64,000 nt of DNA from IMG/VR virus record IMGVR_UViG_3300008259_002957. The stretch is one strand, 5' to 3'. The translations under genes and the position numbers were made by a program. The first letter of the stretch is position 1, and every line of letters starts with the position of its first letter. Origin of the DNA: a virus (Duplodnaviria > Caudoviricetes). The notes under the pieces were generated by a model that did no database searches, was not told the origin of the DNA, and saw only the letters and a program-made list of their open reading frames with translations. This document shows, piece after piece, positions 2,962 through 27,607 of this stretch.

Positions 2962-2991
2962 GTTAAAATCTCTGCATATTTAATGTATTTA

Positions 2992-13376: not shown

Positions 13377-13562
13377 TTAGGTTTTGCGTTTAGACTGTTT
13401 AGCGGATAACTCTGCTACGCTGGAGACTAGACTGCGGCAATCGCCACACACAAATCTTTTTCTCAGTATACGAAAGATCTCTTCCGCAGATCCTGCACCA
13501 GTGAAGTTCACTGTGTCCCGAATCTCATCTACTGTGAGGTTGTTGCACACGCATACTCGCAT
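13377..13562 (-). CDS. Bfd-like [2Fe-2S] ferredoxin
   Basis: VCVCN...CGDC (CxC...CGxC) spacing of bacterioferritin-associated ferredoxin. Confidence 0.75.
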   Translation of the reverse strand: MRVCVCNNLTVDEIRDTVNFTGAGSAEEIFRILRKRFVCGDCRSLVSSVAELSAKQSKRKT

Positions 13563-13873
13563 AATACTATATATCAGGGAGATGGTATAAGCCTGTGATA
13601 CCGCTGTATAAAGAGCGACTGTATAGAATGAAACGATTGGTGAGAAAGCGAATAAAATGGTTTGAAAAGGTTTGGAGAGAAACTGAAAAGTATTTACACA
13701 TAGCCTCTCAGGACCTCAGCCAAAGGTTTAAAAAACTGTTATAACCGTATGATCATAATAGAGCAATCAGAAAAAACCACGTCATACGGTGTCTAACGAC
13801 ACGCCGATCGGACCCTGATGACAAGCCTCTCTAATAGGATCAATGGGTCAGCAGCGGGTCTAACTACGCAGTA

Positions 13874-14473
13874 TAAGTGTTTGATCGTGTTGGATTTTTT
13901 TATACAGTGAGATCACGGGCTTATAAGTCATTGATCGTGTTGAACTTTTTCTACTATACAATTCAAGGGGTTACTAAGTCATTGAAAAGATTCGGAAATT
14001 TTTTCTTGTTTGATTTCACAGACTTAGGCGGAATGGTATTTGTCAATGAGTTTAAATGGTTACATTCGGGGTGGTGGTGGTGCTAAGTCATTGAAAACGT
14101 TGTGGGGAGGTGGAGACTGTATACTGTGGCGGAATTGTGGGGTGGCACAATGGGGCAATTTGGTGGATGGTTTAACGTTAAACCAATTTGGCAGGATGGT
14201 TTAGTGTTAAACTATCGTGGAGGAAATGGTTTAATGTTAAACCTTCTCCCGCGGGTGGTTTAGAGTTAAACCTTACAACCGGAGGTTGTGAGATGGTTTA
14301 ATCATTAAACCATAGGTTCAGGGTTCGGCGACCCTCGCGTTCCCTACTCGGTGCGTGTCCGCACACCTTTCCTGGCCTCACTTACAGTATAACACATCTT
14401 GCCCCGAACGCAACCAGAAGTGATCTAACAAAATCAATGACTTACAAAATAAATTTTTTTTCTAAGTCGTTGA
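13874..14473. repeat. TAAGT(C/G)(A/G/T)TTGA repeats
   Basis: Direct copies at 13874, 13924, 13975 (about 50-bp period), 14084 and 14463; inverted copy at 14434-14444. Confidence 0.85.
14169..14311. repeat. Array of five palindromic GGTTTA-N4/5-TAAAC(C) elements
   Basis: Starts at 14169, 14198, 14228, 14257, 14295; the first copy GGTTTAACGTTAAACC is a perfect palindrome. Confidence 0.9.
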
Positions 14474-14556
14474 GATTGTTGGAGACTTTGTGCTTGCATA
14501 TACGTGTAGACAGTGTATAACTAACACATAGAGGGACATACAAGAGGGAACACACA

Positions 14557-14745
14557 ATGACATTCCATCAACAAGTAGCCAAGTTCGTAGCCAACAACCT
14601 CAACCGAGACGCAGACCGCTATGAACAGATCTGGAGCATCAAGAGCGCACTGCTCGCACACGGTTATCAACTGCTGGCAACAGACAGAGAGACCATTGAC
14701 AGTGTGCTAGACGTTCTGTTCAGAGAACACAATTTCTCAGCATAA
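14557..14745 (+). CDS. Early hypothetical protein
   Basis: Own promoter cassette and GAGGGA RBS. Confidence 0.75.
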   Translation: MTFHQQVAKFVANNLNRDADRYEQIWSIKSALLAHGYQLLATDRETIDSVLDVLFREHNFSA

Positions 14746-14811
14746 ACCGGTTGACAGTGCCCTGCTCATGTGCTATTGTATATGAGTAGGGCAACACAAG
14801 AGGGAACGAAG

Positions 14812-15096
14812 ATGGGATACTTTCTTTACGATCGGCACGACACTCGCATCGTCAGCAAGGAGTACAAGACTCACGCCGCCGCTCAAGCTCAACTGACTCG
14901 GATGGGCAAGGGTCAATTGCAAACAGATCCTAATCATCCAATCTACTGTTACGGCGTCGCAGAGAAAGAGTACTACTTCCGTCACATTGAGCGCAAGGTT
15001 GTGCGAGTTAACTTGATGAGCGGTGTTGAGTACGAGGAGAGTGTGAACACGCCGTTGGCTTGCTCGCCTGCTTCGGAAACCTACTGGAGCATGTAG
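14812..15096 (+). CDS. Early hypothetical protein
   Basis: MGYFLYDRH...; ends TPLACSPASETYWSM; own cassette. Confidence 0.8.
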   Translation: MGYFLYDRHDTRIVSKEYKTHAAAQAQLTRMGKGQLQTDPNHPIYCYGVAEKEYYFRHIERKVVRVNLMSGVEYEESVNTPLACSPASETYWSM

Positions 15097-15162
15097 AAAC
15101 TGGTTGACACGGCCAGCGGGTCGTGTTATAACTGTGACATAGGGCAACACAACGAGGGCACG

Positions 15163-15354
15163 ATGGAAAGCAAACCGTTCTACGTCAAGCAAGACTTTGT
15201 CAAACTCCTGCGTCAGAAGCGCGGCACAGAATACACCATTGGCTGGTTGGCTATGGCTTACTCCATGCCGCCCGTGCCCGAAGCACAGGAGATGGAGATC
15301 ATCCAAAAGGAAATCCCCGTCCTGCAGGCTTTGCCGGACTACGACGGCATCTAA
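15163..15354 (+). CDS. Early hypothetical protein
   Basis: Own cassette, GAGGGC RBS. Confidence 0.75.
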   Translation: MESKPFYVKQDFVKLLRQKRGTEYTIGWLAMAYSMPPVPEAQEMEIIQKEIPVLQALPDYDGI

Positions 15355-15426
15355 GAGGTTGACAGCACAGACTAGACGTGCTATAACTAACACATAGAGC
15401 AACACAGTGTAGAGGGAATATACACA

Positions 15427-15837
15427 ATGGGAACTCGTTCAACTATTGGGATCCAGAACGCAGACGGCACTGTCACTGGCATCTACTGCCACTGGGACGG
15501 CTACTTGAGCCACAACGGCCGAATCCTTGCTGAGAACTACACGGACGAAGACAAGGTGCGTAAGTTGATCGGTCTTGGCGATATCAGCAGCCTGGGACCG
15601 CACATTGGCAATCAGCACGACTTTGACAATGCTCCTACGCTGTCGTGCAATGCTTACGGTCGCGATCGTGGCGAGAAGGATGTTGCTGCTCGCACTCTGC
15701 ACAACTGGCGTCAGTTCTGTGCTGAGAACGGGCAGGAGTATGACTACCTGTTCACTCCTGGTGCTGGCTGGCAGGTTCGCACCTACAACGGCATCTACGA
15801 CCTTGCTCGTGCATTGGCAACAGAAACCGTAGAATAA
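15427..15837 (+). CDS. Early hypothetical protein (widespread phage family, MGTRSxIG...IYCHWDGY)
   Basis: Recognisable N-terminal motif; own cassette. Confidence 0.85.
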   Translation: MGTRSTIGIQNADGTVTGIYCHWDGYLSHNGRILAENYTDEDKVRKLIGLGDISSLGPHIGNQHDFDNAPTLSCNAYGRDRGEKDVAARTLHNWRQFCAENGQEYDYLFTPGAGWQVRTYNGIYDLARALATETVE

Positions 15838-15900
15838 TGGTTGACACAGCCCTGCTCATGTGCTATTGTATATGAGTAGGGCAACACAAGAGGGACTGAG

Positions 15901-16140
15901 ATGTACAAGATCTATGGCGACTATGGTTACACCAGCGAATGCCTGCTGCATGAAGCTGACACTCGTAGCGAAGCCCTGCGTTGGGCAGACCGTTACACTG
16001 CCGACGACTTTGGCGGCTATGCTGTGATTGATGTTGCGGTTCACCTCAGCAACGGCGAATACAGCACCATCCAGACCTACCGTGCAGAAGACTACGAGTA
16101 CGAAGGCGATGACGATTTTGCGCTGATTGATGAATTCTAA
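15901..16140 (+). CDS. Early hypothetical acidic protein
   Basis: Own cassette. Confidence 0.75.
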   Translation: MYKIYGDYGYTSECLLHEADTRSEALRWADRYTADDFGGYAVIDVAVHLSNGEYSTIQTYRAEDYEYEGDDDFALIDEF

Positions 16141-16209
16141 GGTTGACAACCACTGTAGATGTGTTAGTATGTGTGAGTAGAGAGAAACATAGCAGAGAGG
16201 GAACACGCT

Positions 16210-16575
16210 ATGACCAACGCTATCGCAATCCGCAACGAAATGCTGGAACAGGCTGCAACCGTTGCCACGGACTATGTTCGTGAGTGGACTGCTAAGACGG
16301 GCGGCAATGCCTACGGTGAACCCATGTATTGCGGCTTCGCTTGGGTCACTGTATATCCTCAGCACAAAGGCAACACCCGCGACGGCAAAGCTGAGCGCAA
16401 GGTGCTGGAAGACATGGGCTTCCGCAAAGACTGGACGGGCAAGGCTTACGAATACTGGAACCCCAGCAAGTGGGGCGGGCAGAGCATGGATGTAAAGGAA
16501 GCAGGCGCTCGTGCTGCCGCTGACGTGCTTCGCAAGTATGGATTCACTGCCTACGCTGGTTCGCGAGCAGACTGA
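16210..16575 (+). CDS. Early hypothetical protein
   Basis: CGFAWV...GGQSMDVKEAGARAAADVL; own cassette. Confidence 0.8.
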   Translation: MTNAIAIRNEMLEQAATVATDYVREWTAKTGGNAYGEPMYCGFAWVTVYPQHKGNTRDGKAERKVLEDMGFRKDWTGKAYEYWNPSKWGGQSMDVKEAGARAAADVLRKYGFTAYAGSRAD

Positions 16576-16646
16576 GGCAGAAAGAGGTTGACAGGGCGGC
16601 AACGCCCTGTTATAACTAACACATAGGGCAACAAGGAGACGACGAG

Positions 16647-16880
16647 ATGGCACGTTCGATTCGCGAAATTACCAACCGTATCTATGAAGCCGTTGACGAA
16701 GGCGTGCTGACTTGGCAGCAGATTGCCGAAGCCGCTCTGACGTATATGAGCGAAAGCGATGTGGCTGACATGGCTCACAACGAAGAGTTCTTCATGTATG
16801 AAGACGAGGAAGAAGACGAGGAAGAGTGGTCGCCCTACACCGCAGACTTCAATGACAAAGGTTCCATCCACCACTACTGA
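16647..16880 (+). CDS. Early hypothetical acidic protein
   Basis: Own cassette. Confidence 0.75.
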   Translation: MARSIREITNRIYEAVDEGVLTWQQIAEAALTYMSESDVADMAHNEEFFMYEDEEEDEEEWSPYTADFNDKGSIHHY

Positions 16881-16953
16881 TTTTGGTTGACACACCCCTA
16901 CTTGTGTGCTATAACATACGAGTAGGGCAACACTGCTAGAGGAGCACAAGCAG

Positions 16954-17349
16954 ATGGCATACGGTGATTTCGTTACTGAGGTTGGTGAAACGGTTGGTAT
17001 TGTTCGTCAACATCGCCACGGCACGATCTTGATGAGCCGCTTTGGCACTGTAACCAAAGTCAACGGACACGGACACATCTTTGTCCAGTGCGAAGACCGG
17101 GAGTATCGCTTCACCAAGACGGGAGATGCTTACAAAGACTCCTACGGTCCTAGTTTGATGCAGGCTGCTAAACTGCGTATGATCCAGGAGAGTGAGACTC
17201 GTCGCAAGGAGCAGGTGCGTGTGGCTCGTGCTATGGAGCAGACGCTCAAGGAGGGATACTCCTATGCGGGTCGCTTCTTCCCCACCGCAGAGCGTATCGC
17301 GGCTCTGAAAAATCTTTTGTCAGAGTTGGAAAATCTGGTTGACCATTGA
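16954..17349 (+). CDS. Early hypothetical protein
   Basis: Own cassette; 3' end runs through the next -35 box. Confidence 0.75.
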   Translation: MAYGDFVTEVGETVGIVRQHRHGTILMSRFGTVTKVNGHGHIFVQCEDREYRFTKTGDAYKDSYGPSLMQAAKLRMIQESETRRKEQVRVARAMEQTLKEGYSYAGRFFPTAERIAALKNLLSELENLVDH

Positions 17350-17395
17350 GTCAACCAGTGCTATAACTAACACATAGGGCAACGAGGAGCACACG

Positions 17396-17581
17396 ATGAA
17401 CGACGCAAGAGCAGAACAGTGGCAGCGGCTGATCGACCTGCTTGACGAAGCAGATGCGATTCAGCAGAAACTGCTGGGCGACGAGGATGCTGCGGCGTGC
17501 TATGAGTTCCACAATCAGTTGAACAACATGGCCGACGAGTTCACTGACTTGGCCAACAAAGATGGCTACGAAATCGGTTGA
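17396..17581 (+). CDS. Early hypothetical protein
   Basis: Own cassette; TGA stop lies within the next TTGACA. Confidence 0.75.
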   Translation: MNDARAEQWQRLIDLLDEADAIQQKLLGDEDAAACYEFHNQLNNMADEFTDLANKDGYEIG

Positions 17582-17642
17582 CACTGTAGACTAGACGTGC
17601 TATAACTAACACATAGGGCAACACAGTAGAGGGAACTACAAG

Positions 17643-17912
17643 ATGCTGACACTGGAACACACCGTCCGTTCGTACGCCGGCAAGCCTGGCTGCATGTGCG
17701 GCTGCAACGGAGTCTACAACGAAGGCGACCGTGCTCGCAAGATGGCGCTGACGGCGCTGCTGAAGAACCCAGAGGTTCGCTTGCAGGCTTGGAAGCCCAG
17801 CGATGATGCTGGTTGCTTGTTTGTTGAAACTGATACTCGCAACCGTGTGCTGTACCTCACTGAAGCAGGTGTAGCCGCTGCCCGTGCTATGGGCGTGAAA
17901 GAGGAGAAATAA
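17643..17912 (+). CDS. Early hypothetical protein
   Basis: YAGKPGCMCGCNG motif; own cassette. Confidence 0.75.
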   Translation: MLTLEHTVRSYAGKPGCMCGCNGVYNEGDRARKMALTALLKNPEVRLQAWKPSDDAGCLFVETDTRNRVLYLTEAGVAAARAMGVKEEK

Positions 17913-17913
17913 G

Positions 17914-18156
17914 ATGTCTGTTATGGAACTGTTGAAGACTGCTTTTCCGCGCACCAAGAGCACCAAGCACACTGCGTTCTGCGAACGTATCCCAATGGTG
18001 GTTTTTGAACTTGTGGAAGAGCAAGTGCGGACTGAGATGCGGGCAAAAGGTTATGTCACTCGCTATCGTGGGCCGCGTGTGAGCAATAACACCTACGGCA
18101 ATCCTACAACCACTCGGCGCTGCGACGCAACTCATGTTCTGCTCTATCGCAAATAA
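17914..18156 (+). CDS. Early hypothetical protein
   Basis: Second cistron with GGAG RBS. Confidence 0.7.
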   Translation: MSVMELLKTAFPRTKSTKHTAFCERIPMVVFELVEEQVRTEMRAKGYVTRYRGPRVSNNTYGNPTTTRRCDATHVLLYRK

Positions 18157-18217
18157 TGGTTGACACAGGTCACGATTCGCGCTATAACTAACACACAACG
18201 AGGCAATGGAGGGTAAC

Positions 18218-18772
18218 ATGCCGAACTGGTGCAATAACTCAATTGAAATCGAAGGTCCTGTAGAGAAGATTGCTGCACTGTGGGCTGAGGCTTCCGCTGG
18301 CGGCGAAGGCGCGGCTCTGCTCAATGCTCTGTGTCCGATGCCAGCAGAACTCTTAGAAGGTGAAGCCTGGTATGGCTGGCGTGTGGCACACTGGGGAACC
18401 AAGTGGGACATTGACATGCAAGGTCTCGAGTTTGTTGACAACGAACAAGGTCGTGCCTGTATCACAGGTTGGTTTGATTCGGCTTGGAGCCCGCCTGTTG
18501 ATGCGTTCCAGTCTTATGCTAATGAGAATCCTGATGTAGACATGGAACTCAAATACTTCGAGCCCGGCATGTCGTTTGTAGGTGTTTGGGATAGTGAAGG
18601 TGGTGATGCCTATTGGGATGGCGTTGGCGAGTTGCTGGACACCACTGAAGAGCAAGACGCTGTTCTGTTTGAACTGTTGGAACACTTTGATGTGGCCGGT
18701 TGGTTCGAGACTGACGAAGAAGAGAACCTTGAGATCGACCTTGACGGCGGTGTGAGTGCCATCAACGAATAA
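18218..18772 (+). CDS. Api92/YubB-like ferredoxin-like domain protein (DUF1281-like)
   Basis: MPNWCNN...WYGWRVAHWGTKWD...FDSAWSPP...YFEPGM. Confidence 0.85.
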   Translation: MPNWCNNSIEIEGPVEKIAALWAEASAGGEGAALLNALCPMPAELLEGEAWYGWRVAHWGTKWDIDMQGLEFVDNEQGRACITGWFDSAWSPPVDAFQSYANENPDVDMELKYFEPGMSFVGVWDSEGGDAYWDGVGELLDTTEEQDAVLFELLEHFDVAGWFETDEEENLEIDLDGGVSAINE

Positions 18773-18841
18773 TAATGGTTGACACACCCCTACTCGTGTG
18801 CTATAACATACGAGTAGGGCAACGCTGCTGAGGAGCACACG

Positions 18842-19117
18842 ATGGCACGTAAGACGATCGAAGTTGGCAAGATACTGCGGATGGCTAACACCTTCCTTGC
18901 TGCAACTAACACCCGCGACGACGAGCGTGAAGGCGTGTGTGCGCTGCTGGAGGCTGTGCTGTTTGAGTCGGGCAACTATGAAGGCTTCCGCTATTTGGAA
19001 GGCAGTGACTATCCGGAAGAAGTTCCAAGCGGTAGCCGCCGCTTCTACTTCGCAAGCAAGACTGTGCTTGCAGATGAAGCAGAGGAACTTCGCAACGTCA
19101 ACCGCATCCGTGTGTGA
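18842..19117 (+). CDS. Early hypothetical protein
   Basis: Own cassette. Confidence 0.75.
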   Translation: MARKTIEVGKILRMANTFLAATNTRDDEREGVCALLEAVLFESGNYEGFRYLEGSDYPEEVPSGSRRFYFASKTVLADEAEELRNVNRIRV

Positions 19118-19127
19118 GGAGAACCGC

Positions 19128-19292
19128 ATGAACCCTTTGGCTTTTTTTGCAATGGTAGGGTTTGTACTGTTGCTGATCGTCAGCACCGCAGCCTACACCT
19201 TTTCCAAATGCGGCTGGTATGCCTTTGCACTGGGCAAAGGTGCTGGGATGGCTGCCGTCACTGGCATGTGCGATAAACTCAACGAGGAATAA
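19128..19292 (+). CDS. Small membrane protein
   Basis: MNPLAFFAMVGFVLLLIVS..., GAGGAG RBS. Confidence 0.6.
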   Translation: MNPLAFFAMVGFVLLLIVSTAAYTFSKCGWYAFALGKGAGMAAVTGMCDKLNEE

Positions 19293-19293
19293 C

Positions 19294-19413
19294 ATGGACT
19301 GGACTATTGAAGAATACCTAGCGTTCGAACAGCACCTGTTGGAACAAGCAGAAAAAGATGCAGACGATTATGAGATTCCGGTTGACGAACCTGTCTACTG
19401 GTGCTATAACTAA
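19294..19413 (+). CDS. Small acidic protein overlapping the next promoter
   Basis: MDWTIEEYL...VDEPVYWCYN; GAGGA RBS; last codons encode the -35 and -10 boxes. Confidence 0.5.
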   Translation: MDWTIEEYLAFEQHLLEQAEKDADDYEIPVDEPVYWCYN

Positions 19414-19440
19414 CACATAGGGCAACAAGAGGACCACAAG

Positions 19441-19722
19441 ATGAACAACTTTGCAACCGCCATCACTGCAATCCACAAGATGGACAACGACGAACTGAAC
19501 GCTGTGGTTCGTGCAATCAAAGACCGCCGCACCTATCTTGCTCGTCAGCAGGCTGTGACCTTTGCTGTGGGCGACCGTGTGTCGTTCGCTGCTCGTGGTA
19601 TGCAGGTGCTGGGTACCGTTACCAAGATCAACATCAAGACCGTCCAAGTTCGTCAGAGCAACACTGCTACGGTTTGGAAAGTCCACGCAAGCCTGCTCCG
19701 GCCAGTGAAAGAAATGGCTTGA
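19441..19722 (+). CDS. Early hypothetical protein (SH3/KOW-like C-terminus)
   Basis: FAVGDRVSF...GTVTKINIKTVQV...WKVHASLL. Confidence 0.8.
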   Translation: MNNFATAITAIHKMDNDELNAVVRAIKDRRTYLARQQAVTFAVGDRVSFAARGMQVLGTVTKINIKTVQVRQSNTATVWKVHASLLRPVKEMA

Positions 19723-19775
19723 CAGGTTGCTGTATACGTGCTATAACTAACACATAGAAACACAAGAGGGACACG

Positions 19776-19964
19776 ATGAAAGATTACATGACACTGATCG
19801 CAGTCATTGACCGGTTGGGCGATATTGCAGAACTTCCGTCAGCTAAGATCCGCGAAGCACTGGATCAATACATTGCTCAGTTGGAAACAGAGGTTGCTTA
19901 TGTTGAACGAGAGATGGAACGTGAACACCAGATCGATGTGATGTTCGAGAACGTGCCAGTATAA
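19776..19964 (+). CDS. Early hypothetical protein
   Basis: Own cassette. Confidence 0.75.
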   Translation: MKDYMTLIAVIDRLGDIAELPSAKIREALDQYIAQLETEVAYVEREMEREHQIDVMFENVPV

Positions 19965-19967
19965 ATA
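19960..19967 (+). promoter_or_regulatory. T4-type late promoter for the tRNA cluster
   Basis: TATAAATA 6 nt upstream of the first tRNA. Confidence 0.6.
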
Positions 19968-19973
19968 GACAAC

Positions 19974-20049
19974 GCCCGGTTAGCCCAAAGGTAGAGGCAA
20001 CAGACTTAAAATCTGTCAAGCGTCGGTTCGACCCCGACACTGGGTACCA
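19974..20049 (+). tRNA. tRNA-Leu(UAA) with short variable loop
   Basis: Hand-folded cloverleaf: acceptor GCCCGGT/ACTGGGT, anticodon arm ACAGA-CTTAAAA-TCTGT, T arm GTCGG-TTCGACC-CCGAC, ACCA end. Confidence 0.9.
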
Positions 20050-20055
20050 AACATT

Positions 20056-20132
20056 GGGGGATTAGCTCAATTGGTTAGAGCGTCGGACTCATAATCCGCA
20101 GGTTATCGGTTCAAGTCCGGTATCCCCTACCA
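20056..20132 (+). tRNA. tRNA with CAU anticodon (Ile2 or elongator Met)
   Basis: TAGCTCAATTGGTTAGAGC D arm, CTCATAA loop, GGTTCAAGTCC T arm, CCA end. Confidence 0.92.
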
Positions 20133-20134
20133 TA

Positions 20135-20211
<77 letters not shown>

Positions 20212-20229
20212 ACTTTACAAGAGAGCAAG

Positions 20230-20637
20230 ATGAGTTACACTGAAAAGACTATGGTCGCTGGTGAAGCAGAGATCATCTACACCACCTTCTCCTACTGGAA
20301 CTTGGTGTTTGGGTTTGGCATTGGCCTTGCCCTTGCTCCGATCACCCTTGGTTTGAGTATGCTGTTCGCACTTGCGGCTGTGCTGGATCACTACTTCACA
20401 GAGTATTCCATTACCACAAGGCGTGTGTTGACCAAGCGTGGTGTGATCCGGCGGCGGGTGAGTGAAGTGAACATCCGCAAGGTCGAAGGTGTTTCGGTGC
20501 GTCAAACGGTGCTGGGACGCATCTTGGGTTATGGTGATGTGATCGTGCGTGGCACTGGCACAGAGCATTTGACCATCCGGATGGTGCAGGCCCCGCTGTT
20601 AGTGAAAGTTTCTATCCAGAATCAGGTTGACAAGTAA
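20230..20637 (+). CDS. Bacterial PH-domain (bPH_2) membrane protein
   Basis: TM segments, then EYSITTRRVLTKRGVI...IRKVEGVSVRQTVLGRILGYGDVIVRGTG. Confidence 0.85.
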   Translation: MSYTEKTMVAGEAEIIYTTFSYWNLVFGFGIGLALAPITLGLSMLFALAAVLDHYFTEYSITTRRVLTKRGVIRRRVSEVNIRKVEGVSVRQTVLGRILGYGDVIVRGTGTEHLTIRMVQAPLLVKVSIQNQVDK

Positions 20638-20682
20638 GTGTGTCTGTCGTATAGTATACAAGTAGGCAAAGAGGGAAGCAAC

Positions 20683-21684
20683 ATGTCTAACGTTAAATTT
20701 CTTGATGGTACTTTTAAACTGCGCGGCAAAGATGTAGATATGTCGGGCATGGTTCTGCCCATGTTGGAAGGTTTTAAGGTTGGTGTTCGTGGCGGCTACG
20801 TGACTGTGGATGGTAAGGCAGTCCCTGGGTTTCCTGATCGTGCGATTAAGGTGTATGTTGCAGGTGCAGGCTCGGTTGAAGAGACCGAAGACTCCGTGGC
20901 CGCCACTGCCAGAGAAGAATCCGACGAAGAAGTGATTGAACGACTGCGTGAACGCTTTGATATGCTGTCGGACATGACCAGAGCAGTCAAGCGCGGCGAA
21001 GTACGTGCTATGATCGTAAGTGGTCCTCCGGGCGTGGGCAAGAGCCACGGTGTTGAAGAAGTTCTTGATCGCTACAAGATGATGGAGACTCTTGGTGCTG
21101 CCAAGACTCACGAAGTTGTCAAAGGTGCTATGAGTGCGTTGGGTCTCTATGCCAAACTGTTCAAGATGAGTGCTCCAGGCAACATTGTTGTGTTTGACGA
21201 CTGTGACAGTGTGTTCTCAGACGAACTGAGCCTGAACATCCTCAAGGCTGCACTGGACTCAAAGAAGACTCGTACTATCCACTGGAACACTGATAGCCGA
21301 CTGTTGCGTCAAGAAGGTATTCCAGGTTCGTTCAAGTTTGAAGGTAGTGCTATCTTCATCACCAACTTGAAGTTCGACAAGGTCAGAGGTAAACTGCGTG
21401 AACACCTTGCAGCATTGGAATCACGCTGCCACTATATCGACTTGACCATTGACACTGATCGTGAGAAGATGCTGCGTATCCAACAGATCGTTCGTGACGG
21501 CATGTTGGATGAATATGAGTTTGACGAAGAAATGCAACAGGAGATTGTTGACTTCGTTGATGTGAATAAGAAGCGACTGCGCGAACTTTCCCTCAGGTCC
21601 GTGCTCAAGGTCGCCGACTTGGCAAAGGCCTTTCCTACCAAATGGGAAGCCGTTGCCGAAAGCACTGTGATGCGTCGAGACTGA
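20683..21684 (+). CDS. P-loop (AAA-like) ATPase conserved in T4-like phages
   Basis: Walker A GPPGVGKS, Walker B VVFDDCD, IFITN, ALESRC. Confidence 0.85.
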   Translation: MSNVKFLDGTFKLRGKDVDMSGMVLPMLEGFKVGVRGGYVTVDGKAVPGFPDRAIKVYVAGAGSVEETEDSVAATAREESDEEVIERLRERFDMLSDMTRAVKRGEVRAMIVSGPPGVGKSHGVEEVLDRYKMMETLGAAKTHEVVKGAMSALGLYAKLFKMSAPGNIVVFDDCDSVFSDELSLNILKAALDSKKTRTIHWNTDSRLLRQEGIPGSFKFEGSAIFITNLKFDKVRGKLREHLAALESRCHYIDLTIDTDREKMLRIQQIVRDGMLDEYEFDEEMQQEIVDFVDVNKKRLRELSLRSVLKVADLAKAFPTKWEAVAESTVMRRD

Positions 21685-21699
21685 CTCCGCATCACAGTA

Positions 21700-21840
21700 T
21701 GCTACACGGACCGCCCTCATCCGTGTAGCAGCCCAGGTAGACAGTGTGCCCTCGCTGGTCTACCGACTACGGAGAAGCGTCGCCCTCACGCCCTCTCCAC
21801 AGTGCCCTAGCAGGATGCCCTCCCTGCTAGGGCTTTTTTA
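21700..21840 (+). ncRNA. Candidate cuckoo-like sRNA: four hairpins, each with GCCCUC in the loop
   Basis: Stems 21700-21710/21720-21730, 21736-21746/21753-21764, 21771-21780/21788-21798, 21804-21814/21823-21833; ends in a U-tract. Confidence 0.75.
21804..21840 (+). terminator. Rho-independent terminator (also the last hairpin of the candidate sRNA)
   Basis: GCCCTAGCAGG-atgccctc-CCTGCTAGGGC-TTTTTT. Confidence 0.9.
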
Positions 21841-21923
21841 TTGCAATCGCAGTCTTAGAGGTTGACAGGGCGGAACTGCTGTGCTATACATAACAAGTAA
21901 GCAACGCATAGAGGGAATACACA

Positions 21924-22223
21924 ATGCGTAAAGTTACTGTCCTCCGCAAGTTCCAAACTGTTAAAGCAATGCGCGACTGTATTGCTGCTTATACTGCAAA
22001 TGTTTTTGCAGACGAACTGCGCGAAGCTGCTGTTGCAATGTATGCAAATGACATTGCGAGAGCTGTTGTTGCGCTTAACGAGTTTATTAGAACGAGTGAC
22101 GCTGTTGCATTGCACAAGCGTATTATGTATTGGGACACAGACGTGCGGGAAGCATTTGTTAGCGTGTTGCACTACATAGAGCAAGAGCAAATGGTGCCTG
22201 CTACGGAGTTTGCTGTGCTGTAA
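21924..22223 (+). CDS. Early hypothetical protein (largely YC-free)
   Basis: Own cassette; no TC/CC between 21954 and 22197. Confidence 0.75.
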   Translation: MRKVTVLRKFQTVKAMRDCIAAYTANVFADELREAAVAMYANDIARAVVALNEFIRTSDAVALHKRIMYWDTDVREAFVSVLHYIEQEQMVPATEFAVL

Positions 22224-22290
22224 CAACGAGGAGTTGACAGCACAGTCTATCCGTGCTATACAATACAAATAGGGCAACAAGGAGCACACC

Positions 22291-22491
22291 ATGTCTAATG
22301 CACGTCTTGCAGAAATTGCTGCAAAGCACAGCGCAGCAATCCACGTCTACAAAACCACAGGAGAAATTGACAGCACGTCAGATCTCTACTTTGAAGTATA
22401 TGAATATTTCGCAAACGAAATGGACTCTAAAGTCCGCCGCAGTGCTGCACGCCAGTTTGACTACATAACAGAAAAAATCCGCAGCCTGTAA
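22291..22491 (+). CDS. Early hypothetical protein
   Basis: Own cassette. Confidence 0.75.
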   Translation: MSNARLAEIAAKHSAAIHVYKTTGEIDSTSDLYFEVYEYFANEMDSKVRRSAARQFDYITEKIRSL

Positions 22492-22558
22492 GAATGTGGT
22501 TGACACAGCCCTGTAGATATGCTATAACGTATGAGTAGGGCAACAAAGGACAACACCA

Positions 22559-22738
22559 ATGATCAAGATTACTATTCCAGCAGTGTCGGTTCGCGAAGCA
22601 GTCGACATCCGCGACAGAATTCAGGGCGTGATCCTTGTGAAGGGTGAGACGGCTGTGATTGGCGATGGCGGTGTTGTGATCACCACAGACAATCCTGTGC
22701 GTGTGTGCCTTGAACTGCAAGGCGATGGCTTCATCTAA
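22559..22738 (+). CDS. Early hypothetical protein (59 aa, not in the ORF track)
   Basis: Read by hand: MIKITIPAVSVREAVDIRDRIQGV...LQGDGFI*; own cassette. Confidence 0.7.
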   Translation: MIKITIPAVSVREAVDIRDRIQGVILVKGETAVIGDGGVVITTDNPVRVCLELQGDGFI

Positions 22739-22893
22739 CCCCGGCCAGGCGGGCTAAGTCATTGAAAACAATGGCAAATTTTTCTCGCACAAAAATGCTA
22801 AGTCGTTGTTTTTAAACGAATCATTTTGCTTGCAAACTGTGCTGCATAGTGTATAACTGTACTTGTAAGCAACACAGCAGAGGGAAACACGCT

Positions 22894-23100
22894 ATGCAAA
22901 ACACAGTTAAACTTGTGGACGTTGAGTATAACTATAAAAGCGAGCTTTGCGCTACGCTTACAAACAGCGTTAAAGCTGTGCGCTGCGAGGACGTGCTGTA
23001 TTTGGACTTTGTAAGCTATGCTGCAATGTGTGCAGTATACGAGGAGTGGTGCGAGCTTGCGGACGCGGGCGAAGAGGGTTATTTTTACGTAGCAGCGTAA
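22894..23100 (+). CDS. YC-free island ORF 1
   Basis: MQNTVKLVDV...; GAGGGA RBS; no Pro. Confidence 0.75.
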   Translation: MQNTVKLVDVEYNYKSELCATLTNSVKAVRCEDVLYLDFVSYAAMCAVYEEWCELADAGEEGYFYVAA

Positions 23101-23198
23101 AAAAACTTGCAGCACACAGCACTTTTTAGTTGACAAGTGCTGTGTGCTGTGCTATACATAACTTGTAAGCAACACAGCACAGCAGAGGGAAACACGCT

Positions 23199-23486
23199 AT
23201 GCAAAACACAGTAGCAAATACAGCAAATACTAATTACGTTTTTGTAATGCTTGATGACGCTACAAACGCAATTGTACTGCGTATTAATAAAACTGTTGAC
23301 GTTTTTTGTAATAGTGCAAACGACATAATTGCTGCATTTAAACAATATAATATTACGGACTGCGACACTATTATGTGCAGCAGTGACGTGGATTTTGCTA
23401 CGGAGTTTGACTATGCGTACGACAGTGCAGTACACGACATGCTTGACGAAGCTTTTGACGCACTAAATTTTAAACAATACGTTTAA
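23199..23486 (+). CDS. YC-free island ORF 2
   Basis: MQNTVANTAN...; no Pro, Gly or Trp. Confidence 0.75.
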   Translation: MQNTVANTANTNYVFVMLDDATNAIVLRINKTVDVFCNSANDIIAAFKQYNITDCDTIMCSSDVDFATEFDYAYDSAVHDMLDEAFDALNFKQYV

Positions 23487-23576
23487 AAAAACAGCAGCAC
23501 ACAGCACTTTTTACTTGACGAGTGCTGTGTGCTGTGCTATAACTTACACACGGGCAACACACGAGAGGGACTGCAC

Positions 23577-23768
23577 ATGACACGCGAAGAACTGTTTGCT
23601 AAAATTGCTGCAATTGCTGCTGACGCATACGACAGCACGGATGCTGACGAAGTGCAAAGCTGGGATGCATACGAAGCAGCGAAACAGATTGTTATTGCAA
23701 TGCAGACGGTTGGCTACGACATAACATATATGTTGGAGCAAATTGAGGAAGACGCTGACGAAGCGTAA
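23577..23768 (+). CDS. YC-free island ORF 3 (acidic)
   Basis: MTREELFAK...; no Pro. Confidence 0.75.
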   Translation: MTREELFAKIAAIAADAYDSTDADEVQSWDAYEAAKQIVIAMQTVGYDITYMLEQIEEDADEA

Positions 23769-23864
23769 CACAAAAAAAACTTGCAGCGCACAGCACTTTT
23801 TACTTGACGAGTGCTGTGTGCTGTGCTATACATAACTTGTAAGCAACGCAAGAGGGAACACGCT

Positions 23865-24152
23865 ATGCACACAGTAATTGCAGAATTTTTGCAGTGTTTT
23901 GCAGCATATATGCAGCATGTAGCCGCGCTAGCGGACGACACGGAACTCGAGCCCGCGGATGCGGAAGACGCTGTTAAAATTGCACAGCAACTTCCTTTGC
24001 TGTATGCAGTTGTTTACAGTCCCCGTGCAGCACAATGCGCTGCGCTTGATGCGCTAGAAGTCGACTGCATTAACATGCTCGACACCAACGTGCGCGATTT
24101 CTTTGCTAACCTGTATACTGTTAACGCACTGTTCCGCAGCAACGAGTTGTAA
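23865..24152 (+). CDS. Island-edge ORF 4
   Basis: MHTVIAEFL...; same promoter family as the island ORFs. Confidence 0.7.
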   Translation: MHTVIAEFLQCFAAYMQHVAALADDTELEPADAEDAVKIAQQLPLLYAVVYSPRAAQCAALDALEVDCINMLDTNVRDFFANLYTVNALFRSNEL

Positions 24153-24239
24153 TAAAAACTTGCAGCACACAGCACTTTTTACTTGACGAGTGCTGTGTGC
24201 TGTGCTATACATATTGCATAGGGCAAACAGGAGGGCAAG

Positions 24240-24380
24240 ATGAAGATTCAAATTAAAGCCGAAGACATCCAGCGCCGCGATCCGGTTGCTCGTGCATTGG
24301 CAGACAGTCGGTTCCAGCCTCGCACTGTGCGTGACAGAACCAAATACACCCGCAAACAGAAACACCGCAAAGCCTACTAA
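24240..24380 (+). CDS. Small basic ArfA-like protein (46 aa, not in the ORF track)
   Basis: Read by hand: MKIQIKAEDIQRRDPVARALADSRFQPRTVRDRTKYTRKQKHRKAY*. Confidence 0.6.
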   Translation: MKIQIKAEDIQRRDPVARALADSRFQPRTVRDRTKYTRKQKHRKAY

Positions 24381-24404
24381 GGCCCCGCTGTTAAGGAGAT
24401 CGAC

Positions 24405-24581
24405 ATGACTTTCTACCATTACTTCAAGACCGTGTGCCTCTTGCTTGCTAGCCTTGTGGCGTTCATTGCAGTGATTAGCCCCGAGACTGTGGGCAAATGG
24501 CAGGCCCGCAAAGACGTTGCCTACGACAGTATCTGGATCGAATGGATCAGTGACTGTGATTGCACAGAGCCACTGGAGTAA
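24405..24581 (+). CDS. Small membrane protein
   Basis: Read by hand; AAGGAG RBS; one hydrophobic segment. Confidence 0.6.
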   Translation: MTFYHYFKTVCLLLASLVAFIAVISPETVGKWQARKDVAYDSIWIEWISDCDCTEPLE

Positions 24582-24670
24582 GCGACTTTCCGCTTACTGC
24601 GGATAAAACCCGTTGACTCACCTGTAGATCATGCTATAAGTATAATACGAACGACAAAAAGGAGAAACCA

Positions 24671-25270
24671 ATGCGGATGATTCACATCCTCGGCGGCGTC
24701 GCTTCTTCAGCCGTGATCGTTGCAATGGCAGTGGTTTACTTGACGGCAGATGAGGCAAAAGCAGCCGTTGACCCCGTAGAAATCGTATATGTTGACCGAG
24801 TAGTAGAACGAGTGGTGGAGCGTGTGGTGCATGTGCCCATGCCCACCAGACCTGGCCAAGATCCTGAGGCTATCTTTGCTGATGCCGGCACAGAAGACCT
24901 ATACTGTCTAGCACAGAACATCTACTTTGAAAGCAGAGGCGAGAGCAAGGTAGGCCAAGAGTTTGTAGGTTGGGTTACACTGAACAGAGTTCAGAACTCA
25001 GACTTCCCCAGCGAGATCTGCAGGGTAGTGTGGCAGGACAGCCAGTTCTCATGGACACATGACGGCAAGAGCGACCAACCACGAGATGCTGCGGCTTGGG
25101 CAACAGCACAGACCATTGCCCTTGAAGTGGTGCAGGCCTATGGTGTAGAACGTGATCCAACCGAAGGCGCAACCTACTTCCATGCTACCTCAGTCCGACC
25201 TAGTTGGGCCAAGAAGTTCGAACGTGTGGTACAGATCGATAACCATATCTTCTACGTAGATAGAGGTTGA
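24671..25270 (+). CDS. Cell wall hydrolase, SleB/Hydrolase_2 family
   Basis: CLAQNIYFESRGE...VTLNRV...QFSWT...DPTEGATYFHA...V.P.WAK...IDNHIFY. Confidence 0.92.
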   Translation: MRMIHILGGVASSAVIVAMAVVYLTADEAKAAVDPVEIVYVDRVVERVVERVVHVPMPTRPGQDPEAIFADAGTEDLYCLAQNIYFESRGESKVGQEFVGWVTLNRVQNSDFPSEICRVVWQDSQFSWTHDGKSDQPRDAAAWATAQTIALEVVQAYGVERDPTEGATYFHATSVRPSWAKKFERVVQIDNHIFYVDRG

Positions 25271-25325
25271 CACACTGGTTGCCCTGTGCTATACATAACG
25301 TATAGGGCAACACAGGAGACACCAG

Positions 25326-25526
25326 ATGTGGCAAGTAAGAACACAGTTCTCCAAACCTAACGCAGACAATCCTACTGGGCCTTTGGAGTGGAACGCGGTG
25401 TTGGTGGCGACAGAAGCAGAAGCAGAAGCATGGTGGCACACTCGGACCACAGTGAAGAGTTCTGCTCGTAGAGTCTGCACCATGTTCGATCCTGAAGGAA
25501 ATTTAGTTAGAGTCCTGTTCAAATAA
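25326..25526 (+). CDS. Early hypothetical protein
   Basis: Own cassette. Confidence 0.7.
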   Translation: MWQVRTQFSKPNADNPTGPLEWNAVLVATEAEAEAWWHTRTTVKSSARRVCTMFDPEGNLVRVLFK

Positions 25527-25592
25527 CGGTTGACAACCCAGTTGCCCTGTGCTATACATAACACATAGGGCAACACAACAACGAGGCACAAG

Positions 25593-25664
25593 ATGAAACT
25601 TCCGATCCTGCTTTCCGCAATTATGATTGCTGTCGCTGCACATCACTACTTCACTTTCGCCTAA
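25593..25664 (+). CDS. 23-aa hydrophobic peptide
   Basis: MKLPILLSAIMIAVAAHHYFTFA*, directly after a cassette leader. Confidence 0.45.
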   Translation: MKLPILLSAIMIAVAAHHYFTFA

Positions 25665-25676
25665 GGGGGCTGCGCT

Positions 25677-25865
25677 ATGCTGAACTCACAAGAACTCACA
25701 GAGCGTGGTTGGAACATCTATCGTTCCAACAACTGGATTGGTCGTCATCGTGAAACTGGTCGGAAGATCACTGCTGGCACACACCTCACCCTGCTGCACC
25801 TGCTGAACTACGAAGAGTGGCAGAACTCGCAAACTTGGAGCACCGTGCTGGAACAAACTGGTTGA
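25677..25865 (+). CDS. Early hypothetical protein
   Basis: AAGGGGG RBS; stop within the next TTGACA. Confidence 0.65.
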   Translation: MLNSQELTERGWNIYRSNNWIGRHRETGRKITAGTHLTLLHLLNYEEWQNSQTWSTVLEQTG

Positions 25866-25924
25866 CAGCACACCAAACAGATGTTATAGTTAACGCATAG
25901 GGCAACACACTAGAGGGCAAACAC

Positions 25925-26326
25925 ATGTATACCTTTGATGAACAGATTGTTAGCGACCTCCACAAGGACGCTCGCGGCTATCGTCCGGATGAGTACTTCT
26001 GGGAAGAGTGGAGCCAGTGCGGCGACCTTACTCGTCAATCCATGTGGGACAACCTGCTGGAGGAACTGGCAGCGGAGACAGCACGGCAGCGGGACGCTTA
26101 TGCTCGTGCAGAGATCCACTTCCACCAGCGTGTCCAAGGCACTATGTTGGCAGGTGCCGAAGACGAACTCACTGCCATCCGTTGGATCCTTGAGGCCGAA
26201 CAGTTCACTAACTCGGACTTGGCCTACGGTTCGGACTATGTGGCTTGGCACTTTGGACTGCCCTACAAAGGCGAATTTGATCAGCAGATCCAGACTGTGA
26301 TCACGGCTATGGAGTCTGAGAACTAA
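25925..26326 (+). CDS. Early hypothetical protein
   Basis: MYTFDEQIVSDLHKDARGYRP..., a common phage N-terminus; own cassette. Confidence 0.8.
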   Translation: MYTFDEQIVSDLHKDARGYRPDEYFWEEWSQCGDLTRQSMWDNLLEELAAETARQRDAYARAEIHFHQRVQGTMLAGAEDELTAIRWILEAEQFTNSDLAYGSDYVAWHFGLPYKGEFDQQIQTVITAMESEN

Positions 26327-26395
26327 GTGGTTGACACAGTGTAACGGCCGTGCTATACATACGACATAGGGCAACACACTAGAGGGACTACACCA

Positions 26396-26758
26396 ATGAT
26401 GAAGTATGCAATCCTGTTCTCCATCCTTGCTTTTCCAGTGTTTGCACACAGCGGCGGTCTCGATCGCAACGGCTGCCACAACGACAACATCAATGGTGGA
26501 TACCACTGCCATCGTGAATCATCCAACAGCGAAGTTGCTCACAACGACAACAACGACCTTGAACGGCTGTTGATGGGTATCGTGGCTGTTGGTGTTATTT
26601 CTGCTGCGATTGCTCCTCAATCAGAACCTGTGTACCACCAGCCCGCAGTCCGTGCATGTGTGGTTGAAGAAGTAGAGTATACTCCGACTCGCGTTTACGT
26701 GGCAGTGATCGATACTTGTGCTGGACACATCCTAGATCAATATTCCTACAATCGCTGA
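26396..26758 (+). CDS. YHYH-domain exported protein
   Basis: Signal peptide, then HSGGLDRNGCHND...YHCH. Confidence 0.8.
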   Translation: MMKYAILFSILAFPVFAHSGGLDRNGCHNDNINGGYHCHRESSNSEVAHNDNNDLERLLMGIVAVGVISAAIAPQSEPVYHQPAVRACVVEEVEYTPTRVYVAVIDTCAGHILDQYSYNR

Positions 26759-26828
26759 ACTAAGTGGTTGACAACCCTGCTCAAGCCTGCTATACATAAC
26801 ACATAGGGCAACACAAGAGGAACACACC

Positions 26829-27080
26829 ATGAACCTTAACGCACAGAACATCCAGAAGATTCAAGCCATGCTGCGTAACGTTGCAGAAGTAGACCCCAAC
26901 GACATCATCTCCAACCGTGCAAGCCAACTGGCTGTGGACTTGGAACTGGTGCGTGTTCCGTTCCTATACGAAAGCCTTACAGAAGCAGAACGCATGTTGG
27001 TACAGTATGCTATCAGCAAGCGTGACGTGTATGTGTTGCGCCCAGACGCAAGACATGCTGTGAACCTCCAAGCAGCCTAA
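26829..27080 (+). CDS. Early hypothetical protein (last cassette)
   Basis: Own cassette. Confidence 0.75.
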   Translation: MNLNAQNIQKIQAMLRNVAEVDPNDIISNRASQLAVDLELVRVPFLYESLTEAERMLVQYAISKRDVYVLRPDARHAVNLQAA

Positions 27081-27607
27081 TCCGACACTGCGGCCCGACT
27101 CCTTAATGAATGTATACAGAACTTCCGCAGTGTTGGACAACCTGCGGATTTTCTCTTGAGGTCAGGTATGAGAAAATAAAAAATTTTTCTTTGGGGTGGT
27201 CGCTTAACAAACAATATATTGACACACACATACGCTAGCGTAACACCTGGTGTTGCCCGATCACCACCTCAAAACTATAAGTACTTCTCTATAATTTTTC
27301 TCGGCAGATTTTTTTACTCTGGTAGAACCCCTTCAGGGAATCGTATCTCCACAGCCACGCATCGTGCCGCAGTGTATTCCTCTGCTCTGCTTTCACACTC
27401 CGCTAGAGTTTTATGCACTGTGTCTGCAGTCAATCCATTCACAGTCAGTATCAGCAGTATCCACCACATTGTTCACCCTCCAAAAACAACCTCACTGAGT
27501 ATTTAAGTACTCCAGCAAATTTTTTTGCTGCAAAATTTTTTCTCCCGCAGCAACCCCTCCAGCGTAGAGTTGGTTGACACCCAACCAAGGTATGTTATAC
27601 TGTGTGC

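Follow-up and report, generated by a model that had tools for sequence, protein, structure and literature searches.

The window considered here is a stretch of 64,000 nucleotides of viral DNA (Duplodnaviria, Caudoviricetes; IMG/VR record IMGVR_UViG_3300008259_002957) that represents a portion of a large phage genome and encodes a T4-type large terminase, a DnaB-like helicase, a primase and virion proteins. According to the terminase, the closest cultured phages are jumbo phages of the PA5oct type (54% identity). Between 14.49 and 27.08 kb, the plus strand carries an array of small genes, each preceded by its own promoter, where the G+C content is about 50% as opposed to 36-43% across most of the window. 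In the present work, we examine the inverted repeats that enclose promoter boxes of these cassettes. They form hairpins that are non-random, covary and are biased toward the sense strand. In nucleotide searches against cultured phages, an 8-kb query found matches solely through three tRNA genes, and a single cassette used as query found none. The array and the terminator that it contains are located as follows:

14492..27080, plus strand: array of 29 one-promoter-one-gene cassettes of small early genes (sequence patterns)
21804..21843, plus strand: sole canonical intrinsic terminator on this strand of the array, an 11-pair stem followed by six T (terminator scan)

All cassettes share one layout, which consists of a -35 box TTGACA, a 17-base spacer usually ending in TGC, a -10 box, a leader, a GAGGG-type ribosome site, an ATG and a small open reading frame (ORF). 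The -10 box occurs as TATAAC, TATACA, TATTGT or TATAGT. The conserved leader contains AGGGCAAC, beginning 8 bases past the -10 box; transcription start sites were assumed from the usual spacing after this box. As the leader ATAGGGCAAC (bases 7-16 after the -10 box), it is kept at the predicted transcript start across 57 viral contig stretches that are introduced below. This leader is similar to the downstream ribosome-site region AGAGGGAAC. The next -35 box usually lies a few bases past the stop codon of the preceding co-directional gene. Because the array possesses only one canonical terminator on its plus strand, read-through over the remaining cassette boundaries is expected.

The array is also plastic. 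Cassette promoters are duplicated within the window, and 14 window genes (14557-27080) recur in one of the related contig stretches, L039 (5400-11100), with protein identities of 47-97% (74-97% for nine of the genes). The order of these shared genes is strongly rearranged between the two sequences, which we take as evidence for cassette-wise shuffling between close relatives.

Folding of the promoter regions located the following hairpins, with their RNA energies where given:

14758..14793, plus strand: hairpin around the -10 box, 16 pairs, loop TATT, -28.1 kcal/mol for the sense strand and -14.5 kcal/mol for the complement
15849..15882, plus strand: duplicate of the hairpin at 14758, 15 pairs, -27.2 kcal/mol for the sense strand and -13.4 kcal/mol for the complement
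16589..16612, plus strand: spacer-centred hairpin that starts at the end of the -35 box and stops where the -10 box begins, GCAA tetraloop on a stem of 10 pairs
16896..16927, plus strand: hairpin around the -10 box, 13 pairs including G.U, second stem family
17335..17358, plus strand: hairpin with the -35 box in its 5' arm, 9 pairs
18788..18819, plus strand: duplicate of the hairpin at 16896, 13 pairs
22214..22244, plus strand: helix around the -35 box, 8 outer pairs, z -2.9 against spacer shuffles
22508..22541, plus strand: degenerate hairpin around the -10 box, 7 plus 5 pairs with an internal loop, z -2.4
23110..23149, plus strand: island family hairpin around the -35 box, 15-17 Watson-Crick pairs, same stability on either strand
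23495..23534, plus strand: island family hairpin, second copy
23784..23823, plus strand: island family hairpin, third copy, with one G.U
24164..24201, plus strand: island family hairpin, fourth copy
25275..25315, plus strand: hairpin around the -10 box in another register, 15 pairs, 10-base loop, the consensus leader forming the 3' arm
25541..25574, plus strand: duplicate of the type at 25275, 11 pairs, 12-base loop

A preliminary description of this DNA had listed inverted repeats around the promoter boxes, and all of them were recovered at, or within 2 bases of, the positions that it gave. The 5' arms at 14761 and 15851 belong to hairpins of 15-16 pairs, longer than had been described. Both arms at 18788 and 16896 are present, the mismatch reported for the latter being a T.G pair, as are those at 25278 and 25541 (previously placed at about 25543). 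The four island copies do enclose the -35 box, with 15-17 pairs. At 16604, the seven-pair repeat exists; the stronger fold at this place is the spacer-internal 10-pair GCAA hairpin 16589-16612.

Taken together, the stems in the window comprise 9-17 pairs with loops of 4-12 bases, and at the previously listed repeats the sense strand reaches z values of -4.8 to -8.5 against dinucleotide shuffles. When only spacer bases 1-14 are shuffled, 14 of the 29 cassettes show p<=0.02 and the remaining 15 are at background. Since recent duplication accounts for three cassette pairs and for the four island copies, the 14 structured cassettes amount to about eight independent solutions: three types that enclose the -10 box, a degenerate one at the same box, the four-copy island type around the -35 box, two other -35 types (17335 and 22214) and one spacer-internal type (16589). 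Covariation within the window therefore rests on few events, and it becomes solid only once related viral contigs are added. In the hairpins at 14758 and 15849, the stem extends through TGC into the -10 box, whose first four bases form the loop. Stems with such 4-base loops, found in the window and in contig stretches L003, L017 and L019, have TATTGT or TATAGT as -10 box, the G of which pairs with the C of the preceding TGC. The RNA fold thus appears to shape the sequence of the -10 box itself, the two variants serving to close the stem.

A viral contig collection was searched with two DNA pattern scans and yielded 57 stretches, all from uncultured viral contigs, that carry the same type of cassette. 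Together with the window they provide 256 cassettes, of which 147 are non-redundant after removal of those at least 80% identical over 71 bases. In this set, z against spacer shuffles averages -1.69 (p=3e-15), and an empirical p<=0.01 is reached by 30% of the cassettes, compared with 1% expected. Of the 45 clearly structured cassettes, 21 have their loop at or just past the -10 box, 16 within the spacer and 8 at the -35 box. Several phages share a register in which leader base 16-k is the partner of spacer base k and -10 bases 1-4 make up the loop.

This recurrent register offers the most direct view of covariation. All six of its variable core pairs are formed in 10 of the 147 cassettes, while permutation of whole spacers across cassettes predicts 0.84 (p<5e-5), and the excess of fully paired cassettes persists in subsets picked regardless of pairing. 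In an alignment of 11 members of the register, 93.8% of the cells pair, as compared with 26-52% in controls where the partners are slid; five pairs have changed on both sides, and one of them occurs as CG, AU, GC and UA. Because the members of this alignment were selected for pairing, the permutation test provides the unbiased figure. Orthologous promoters tell the same story on a smaller scale. The promoter of gene 14812 (at 14751) and its L039 counterpart lie between genes whose proteins are 90% and 97% identical, and despite largely different spacers both form hairpins of 15-16 pairs. Similarly, the promoter at 18779 and its L001 orthologue keep their stem through an exchange of G-C for A-U. 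Chance or shared ancestry alone is ruled out as an explanation by the folding of shuffled spacers, the permuted-spacer test and the changes on both sides of stem pairs. The selection on a folded structure proposed in the preliminary description is supported, its interpretation as a whole being so in part.

The promoter-like sites of the cultured jumbo phage PA5oct display a weaker form of the same trend, with a mean z of -0.8 and 2 of 28 sites at z<=-2.5. PA5oct is a relative, and it did not work as a negative control. Several of its sites (MK797984.1), for example those at 172922, 154712, 158206 and 216211 (L070, L066, L067 and L073), carry stems around the -10 or -35 box, and one promoter-site stem pairs with an ATAGGGA leader. 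The publication on this phage reports 32 sigma-70-like promoters and separate terminators, and nested hairpins are not reported in it. An Rfam search of positions 13500-27500 detected three tRNAs only, and the hairpins match no curated covariance model.

The identity of the folding strand can be approached through mismatches, since the inverted-repeat search was strand-symmetric and treated G.T and A.C alike. The 60 stems hold 75 G.T and 6 A.C (p=3e-16), compared with 205:240 in spacer-shuffled controls, and the ratio becomes 21:0 when both partners sit at unconstrained positions. The sense strand is A-rich, a composition that favours A.C over G.T. Strand-biased mutation was considered as a source of the G.T excess and ruled out, since A exceeds T on the sense strand and the ratio in shuffles is close to 1:1. 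After shuffle normalisation, the sense strand is also more stable than its complement (p=0.002).

Further observations bear on the nature of the folded molecule. Among about 13 tetraloops located in spacers, GAAA, GCAA and TTCG each occur twice and so make up six; TTCG loops are endowed with special stability in RNA, not in DNA. Hairpins are present in 40% of the 94 cassettes whose upstream gene ends before the promoter (mean z -2.3) and in 11% of the 38 cassettes where an upstream coding sequence overlaps it (mean z -0.45), a difference with p=1e-5. In the window, the three cassettes that open a unit (-10 boxes at 14516, 21885 and 22852) are all hairpin-free, an outcome with a chance probability of about 0.12. 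RNA is favoured over single-stranded DNA because of the GAAA, GCAA and TTCG loops, the flexible loop position and the avoidance of translated positions. Most likely, then, the sense strand folds as RNA of read-through transcripts. Among the forms envisaged in the preliminary description, namely read-through RNA, single-stranded DNA or a cruciform, a single-stranded sense fold is favoured, most likely that of read-through RNA, and the cruciform is not supported.

The closest known kind of element is the promoter early stem-loop (PeSL) cassette described in the T4-like phages RB49/phi1, T4/PST and KVP40/nt-1 (Arbiol et al. 2010, PMC2839356; Comeau et al. 2014, PMC4122927). In both cases, small genes of unknown function are packed in dense arrays, each gene (29 cassettes here) has a near-consensus sigma-70 promoter, a stem-loop and a ribosome site in front of its start codon, and the region is plastic, with a gene order shuffled between close relatives. 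The PeSL stem-loop is found just upstream of the promoter, from which an AT-rich stretch separates it (PMC4122927), whereas the stem-loop described here is nested in the promoter, makes use of promoter bases in its stem and has its loop at either promoter box or in the spacer between them. PeSL stem-loops terminate transcription (PMC2839356); the hairpins in the window are devoid of a U-tail. Finally, the phage is not T4-like, its terminase being nearest to those of PA5oct-type jumbo phages. On account of stem-loop position, U-tail and phage group, these cassettes are a variant of the PeSL type and not a member of it.

We consider it probable that the inverted repeats are real, selected sense-strand hairpins, likely formed in RNA, which act as an intercistronic element on read-through transcripts. 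According to this scenario, transcripts started upstream would cross the next promoter and copy it into RNA, as there are almost no terminators between cassettes. The 17-base spacer, the sole freely variable part of the promoter, would have evolved to match one of three pairing partners: itself, leaving the loop in the spacer; the bases just upstream, leaving the loop at the -35 box; or the conserved start of the next message, leaving the loop at the -10 box. A transcript initiated at the cassette's own promoter holds at most the 3' arm, and therefore only read-through RNA would bear the hairpin. What all three loop classes have in common is a stable hairpin between the stop codon and the next ribosome site. 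The hairpin would thus be a position-flexible RNA element of cassette boundaries filling the role of the PeSL stem-loop, and its nesting in the promoter would follow from an intergenic space that consists of the promoter only.

Such an element might serve in several ways. It could block 3' exonucleases, in the manner of REP elements, which are dispersed host repeats of bacterial operons acting as intercistronic stabiliser hairpins. The likeness resides in a stable hairpin right past the stop codon that carries no U-tail and could, by analogy, set the stability of the upstream message; REP elements differ in that they are not parts of promoters. It could alternatively be a processing site trimming read-through RNA to gene-sized units. 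The RNase III hairpins of the T7 and T3 early genes, such as R1.1, extend over roughly two helical turns, include an internal loop and lie clear of promoters. They too are long intercistronic hairpins of early transcripts made by the host RNA polymerase, with G.U pairs and no U-tail; in the phage described here, the stems overlap the promoter and have 9-17 pairs, a length that, together with the G.U pairs, is compatible with such processing. Lastly, the hairpin could insulate the next ribosome site from upstream sequence. The predicted access to this site in read-through RNA is 0.520 with the native spacer and 0.484 with shuffled ones (p=0.0025). We infer that protection, processing or insulation at gene boundaries ranks first among the possible functions, followed by non-canonical attenuation, by occlusion of the leader in the -10 class only and by a role of single-stranded DNA in recombination.

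Several points weigh against our preferred interpretation. The island hairpins and that at 17335 are perfect palindromes and have no strand preference. G.T is the most tolerated mismatch in single-stranded DNA as well, so that strand bias alone cannot separate RNA from plus-strand DNA. The difference between 40% and 11% of hairpin-bearing cassettes could be produced by coding constraint on the spacer alone. The cassettes without a co-directional gene nearby upstream number only five, too few to inform on hairpins in first cassettes. About half of the window cassettes have no hairpin, which makes the element optional, and the effect on ribosome-site access is small.

Among the competing explanations, an attenuator is the first to be weighed: the hairpins would be non-canonical attenuators or terminators damping read-through from upstream promoters, as the PeSL stem-loops do, which terminated transcription in reporter assays (PMC2839356). 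Their location right behind a stop codon is typical of terminators, and the stems are long and stable. An intrinsic terminator is defined by a GC-rich stem with a U-tract directly after it, and the promoter hairpins do not have this arrangement. The 8 bases past the stem contain on average 0.4 U in the -10 class and about 3 in the other two classes, at least 5 U being present in at most 6% of any class, and the terminator scan of the plus strand of the array picks up none of the promoter hairpins. Stems without a U-tail are therefore not canonical terminators, and we regard attenuation as unlikely.

The preliminary description had suggested that, in read-through RNA, the AGGGC leader is masked by the 5' arm, in such a way that only messages from a gene's own promoter are translated; recognition by a leader-binding factor could be restricted in the same manner. 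Indeed, the conserved leader constitutes the 3' arm in the -10 loop class, it resembles the ribosome site downstream, and both arms coexist only in read-through RNA. In 24 of the 45 structured cassettes, however, the leader is outside the stem, the loop being in the spacer or at the -35 box, and occlusion cannot therefore be a general function. The native spacer, moreover, makes the predicted ribosome-site access slightly higher, not lower. This proposal is accordingly held to be quite improbable.

We also judge doubtful, and to the same degree, that the plus strand folds as single-stranded DNA during replication or recombination and guides the duplication, deletion and reordering of cassettes, as PeSL mini-circles or attC-like substrates would. 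In its favour are the heavy shuffling of cassette order with respect to L039, although the proteins are 74-97% identical, the promoters duplicated inside the window, the tolerance of DNA hairpins for G.T, which suits the observed strand bias, and the mapping of one PeSL crossover within the loop of a stem-loop (PMC2839356). On the other hand, homologous recombination between the conserved promoter and leader works without any hairpin, the RNA-specific stability of the TTCG loops is left aside by a DNA fold, and so, coding constraint apart, is the avoidance of translated positions. The integron attC sites evoked in the preliminary description have conserved R and L boxes and extrahelical bases, require the integron integrase and belong to cassettes that are usually promoterless. 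The resemblance, which lies in gene cassettes with imperfect inverted repeats at their boundaries and in the single-stranded folding of these repeats, goes no further: none of these listed features is seen in the array, the arms vary by family and contain no shared attC box motifs, and neither a recombinase nor an integrase was encountered among the 28 ORFs scanned, which are not every ORF. The early hairpin promoters of phage N4, formed in DNA with 5-7 pairs and a 3-base loop and read by the virion RNA polymerase, likewise place a promoter within a hairpin in an early region. Here, by contrast, the boxes follow the sigma-70 consensus, stems have 9-17 pairs, loops have 4-12 bases and the sense strand is preferred; no giant polymerase ORF exists within the window, the only part of the genome seen.

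A double-stranded DNA feature, whether a palindromic operator, a supercoiling-dependent cruciform or an unselected quasi-palindrome left by template switching, would account for repeats centred on promoter boxes and for the perfect palindromes of the island copies and 17335, equally stable on both strands, but it should be strand-symmetric and is excluded by the G.T excess, the 21:0 count and the sense-strand energy, while the complement loses about half the energy in the strongest cases and no single protein site fits families that differ in arm sequence, register and loop size (4 to 12 bases), all of which makes it highly improbable.

Other features of the window deserve mention. The island cassettes, including their -35-enclosing hairpins, are spanned by a stretch of 1100 bases (22823-23922) that contains 212 C and not a single TC or CC on the plus strand; a control of equal length has 43 TC and 45 CC. 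Upstream of the first cassette lies a non-coding block (13870-14480) in which short palindromes built like GGTTTAA..TTAAACC cluster at 14169-14310. Five copies of TAAGTCRTTGA are tied to this block, the fifth being located at 22755, where the island starts. The block looks like a binding-site array or an origin. The 13-mer GGCCCCGCTGTTA is present in six exact copies on the plus strand (11698, 12982, 13307, 13367, 20589 and 24381) and none on the minus strand, often at gene ends or starts. A candidate regulatory RNA is the structured non-coding stretch (21690-21843) behind the AAA ATPase gene. It ends in the only canonical terminator of the array, and several motifs in it, of the form GCCCTC or GCCCTA, are the complement of the ribosome site and leader of the cassettes. 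On the minus strand, at 697-5076, a 754-residue protein with an Mtd N-terminal domain adjoins a 694-residue collagen-repeat protein, and both are probably receptor-binding fibre proteins.

The bacterial promoter spacer is usually thought to be constrained in length only. In these phages, it would also carry a structural code that is read after transcription. Synthetic operons could benefit from such compact promoter-and-insulator units as building blocks, and PA5oct, for which RNA-seq has been published (PMC7318152), could serve as an experimental system for promoter-nested hairpins. The principle of the cassette combining promoter and stem-loop is extended from T4-like phages to uncultured large aquatic phages, represented by the 57 contig stretches, and this raises the question of how tandem strong promoters without terminators yield defined messages. 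One tentative answer, which we put forward as a possibility, is that the promoter is dual-coded, acting as a promoter in DNA and, in RNA, as a tag borne only by the read-through copies of the next gene's message. If this is true, processing, decay or translation could handle read-through and own-promoter copies differently, and a mobile cassette would retain its dosage at any place in an array to which recombination brings it. It would then represent a general design rule for the shufflable gene cassettes of large phages.

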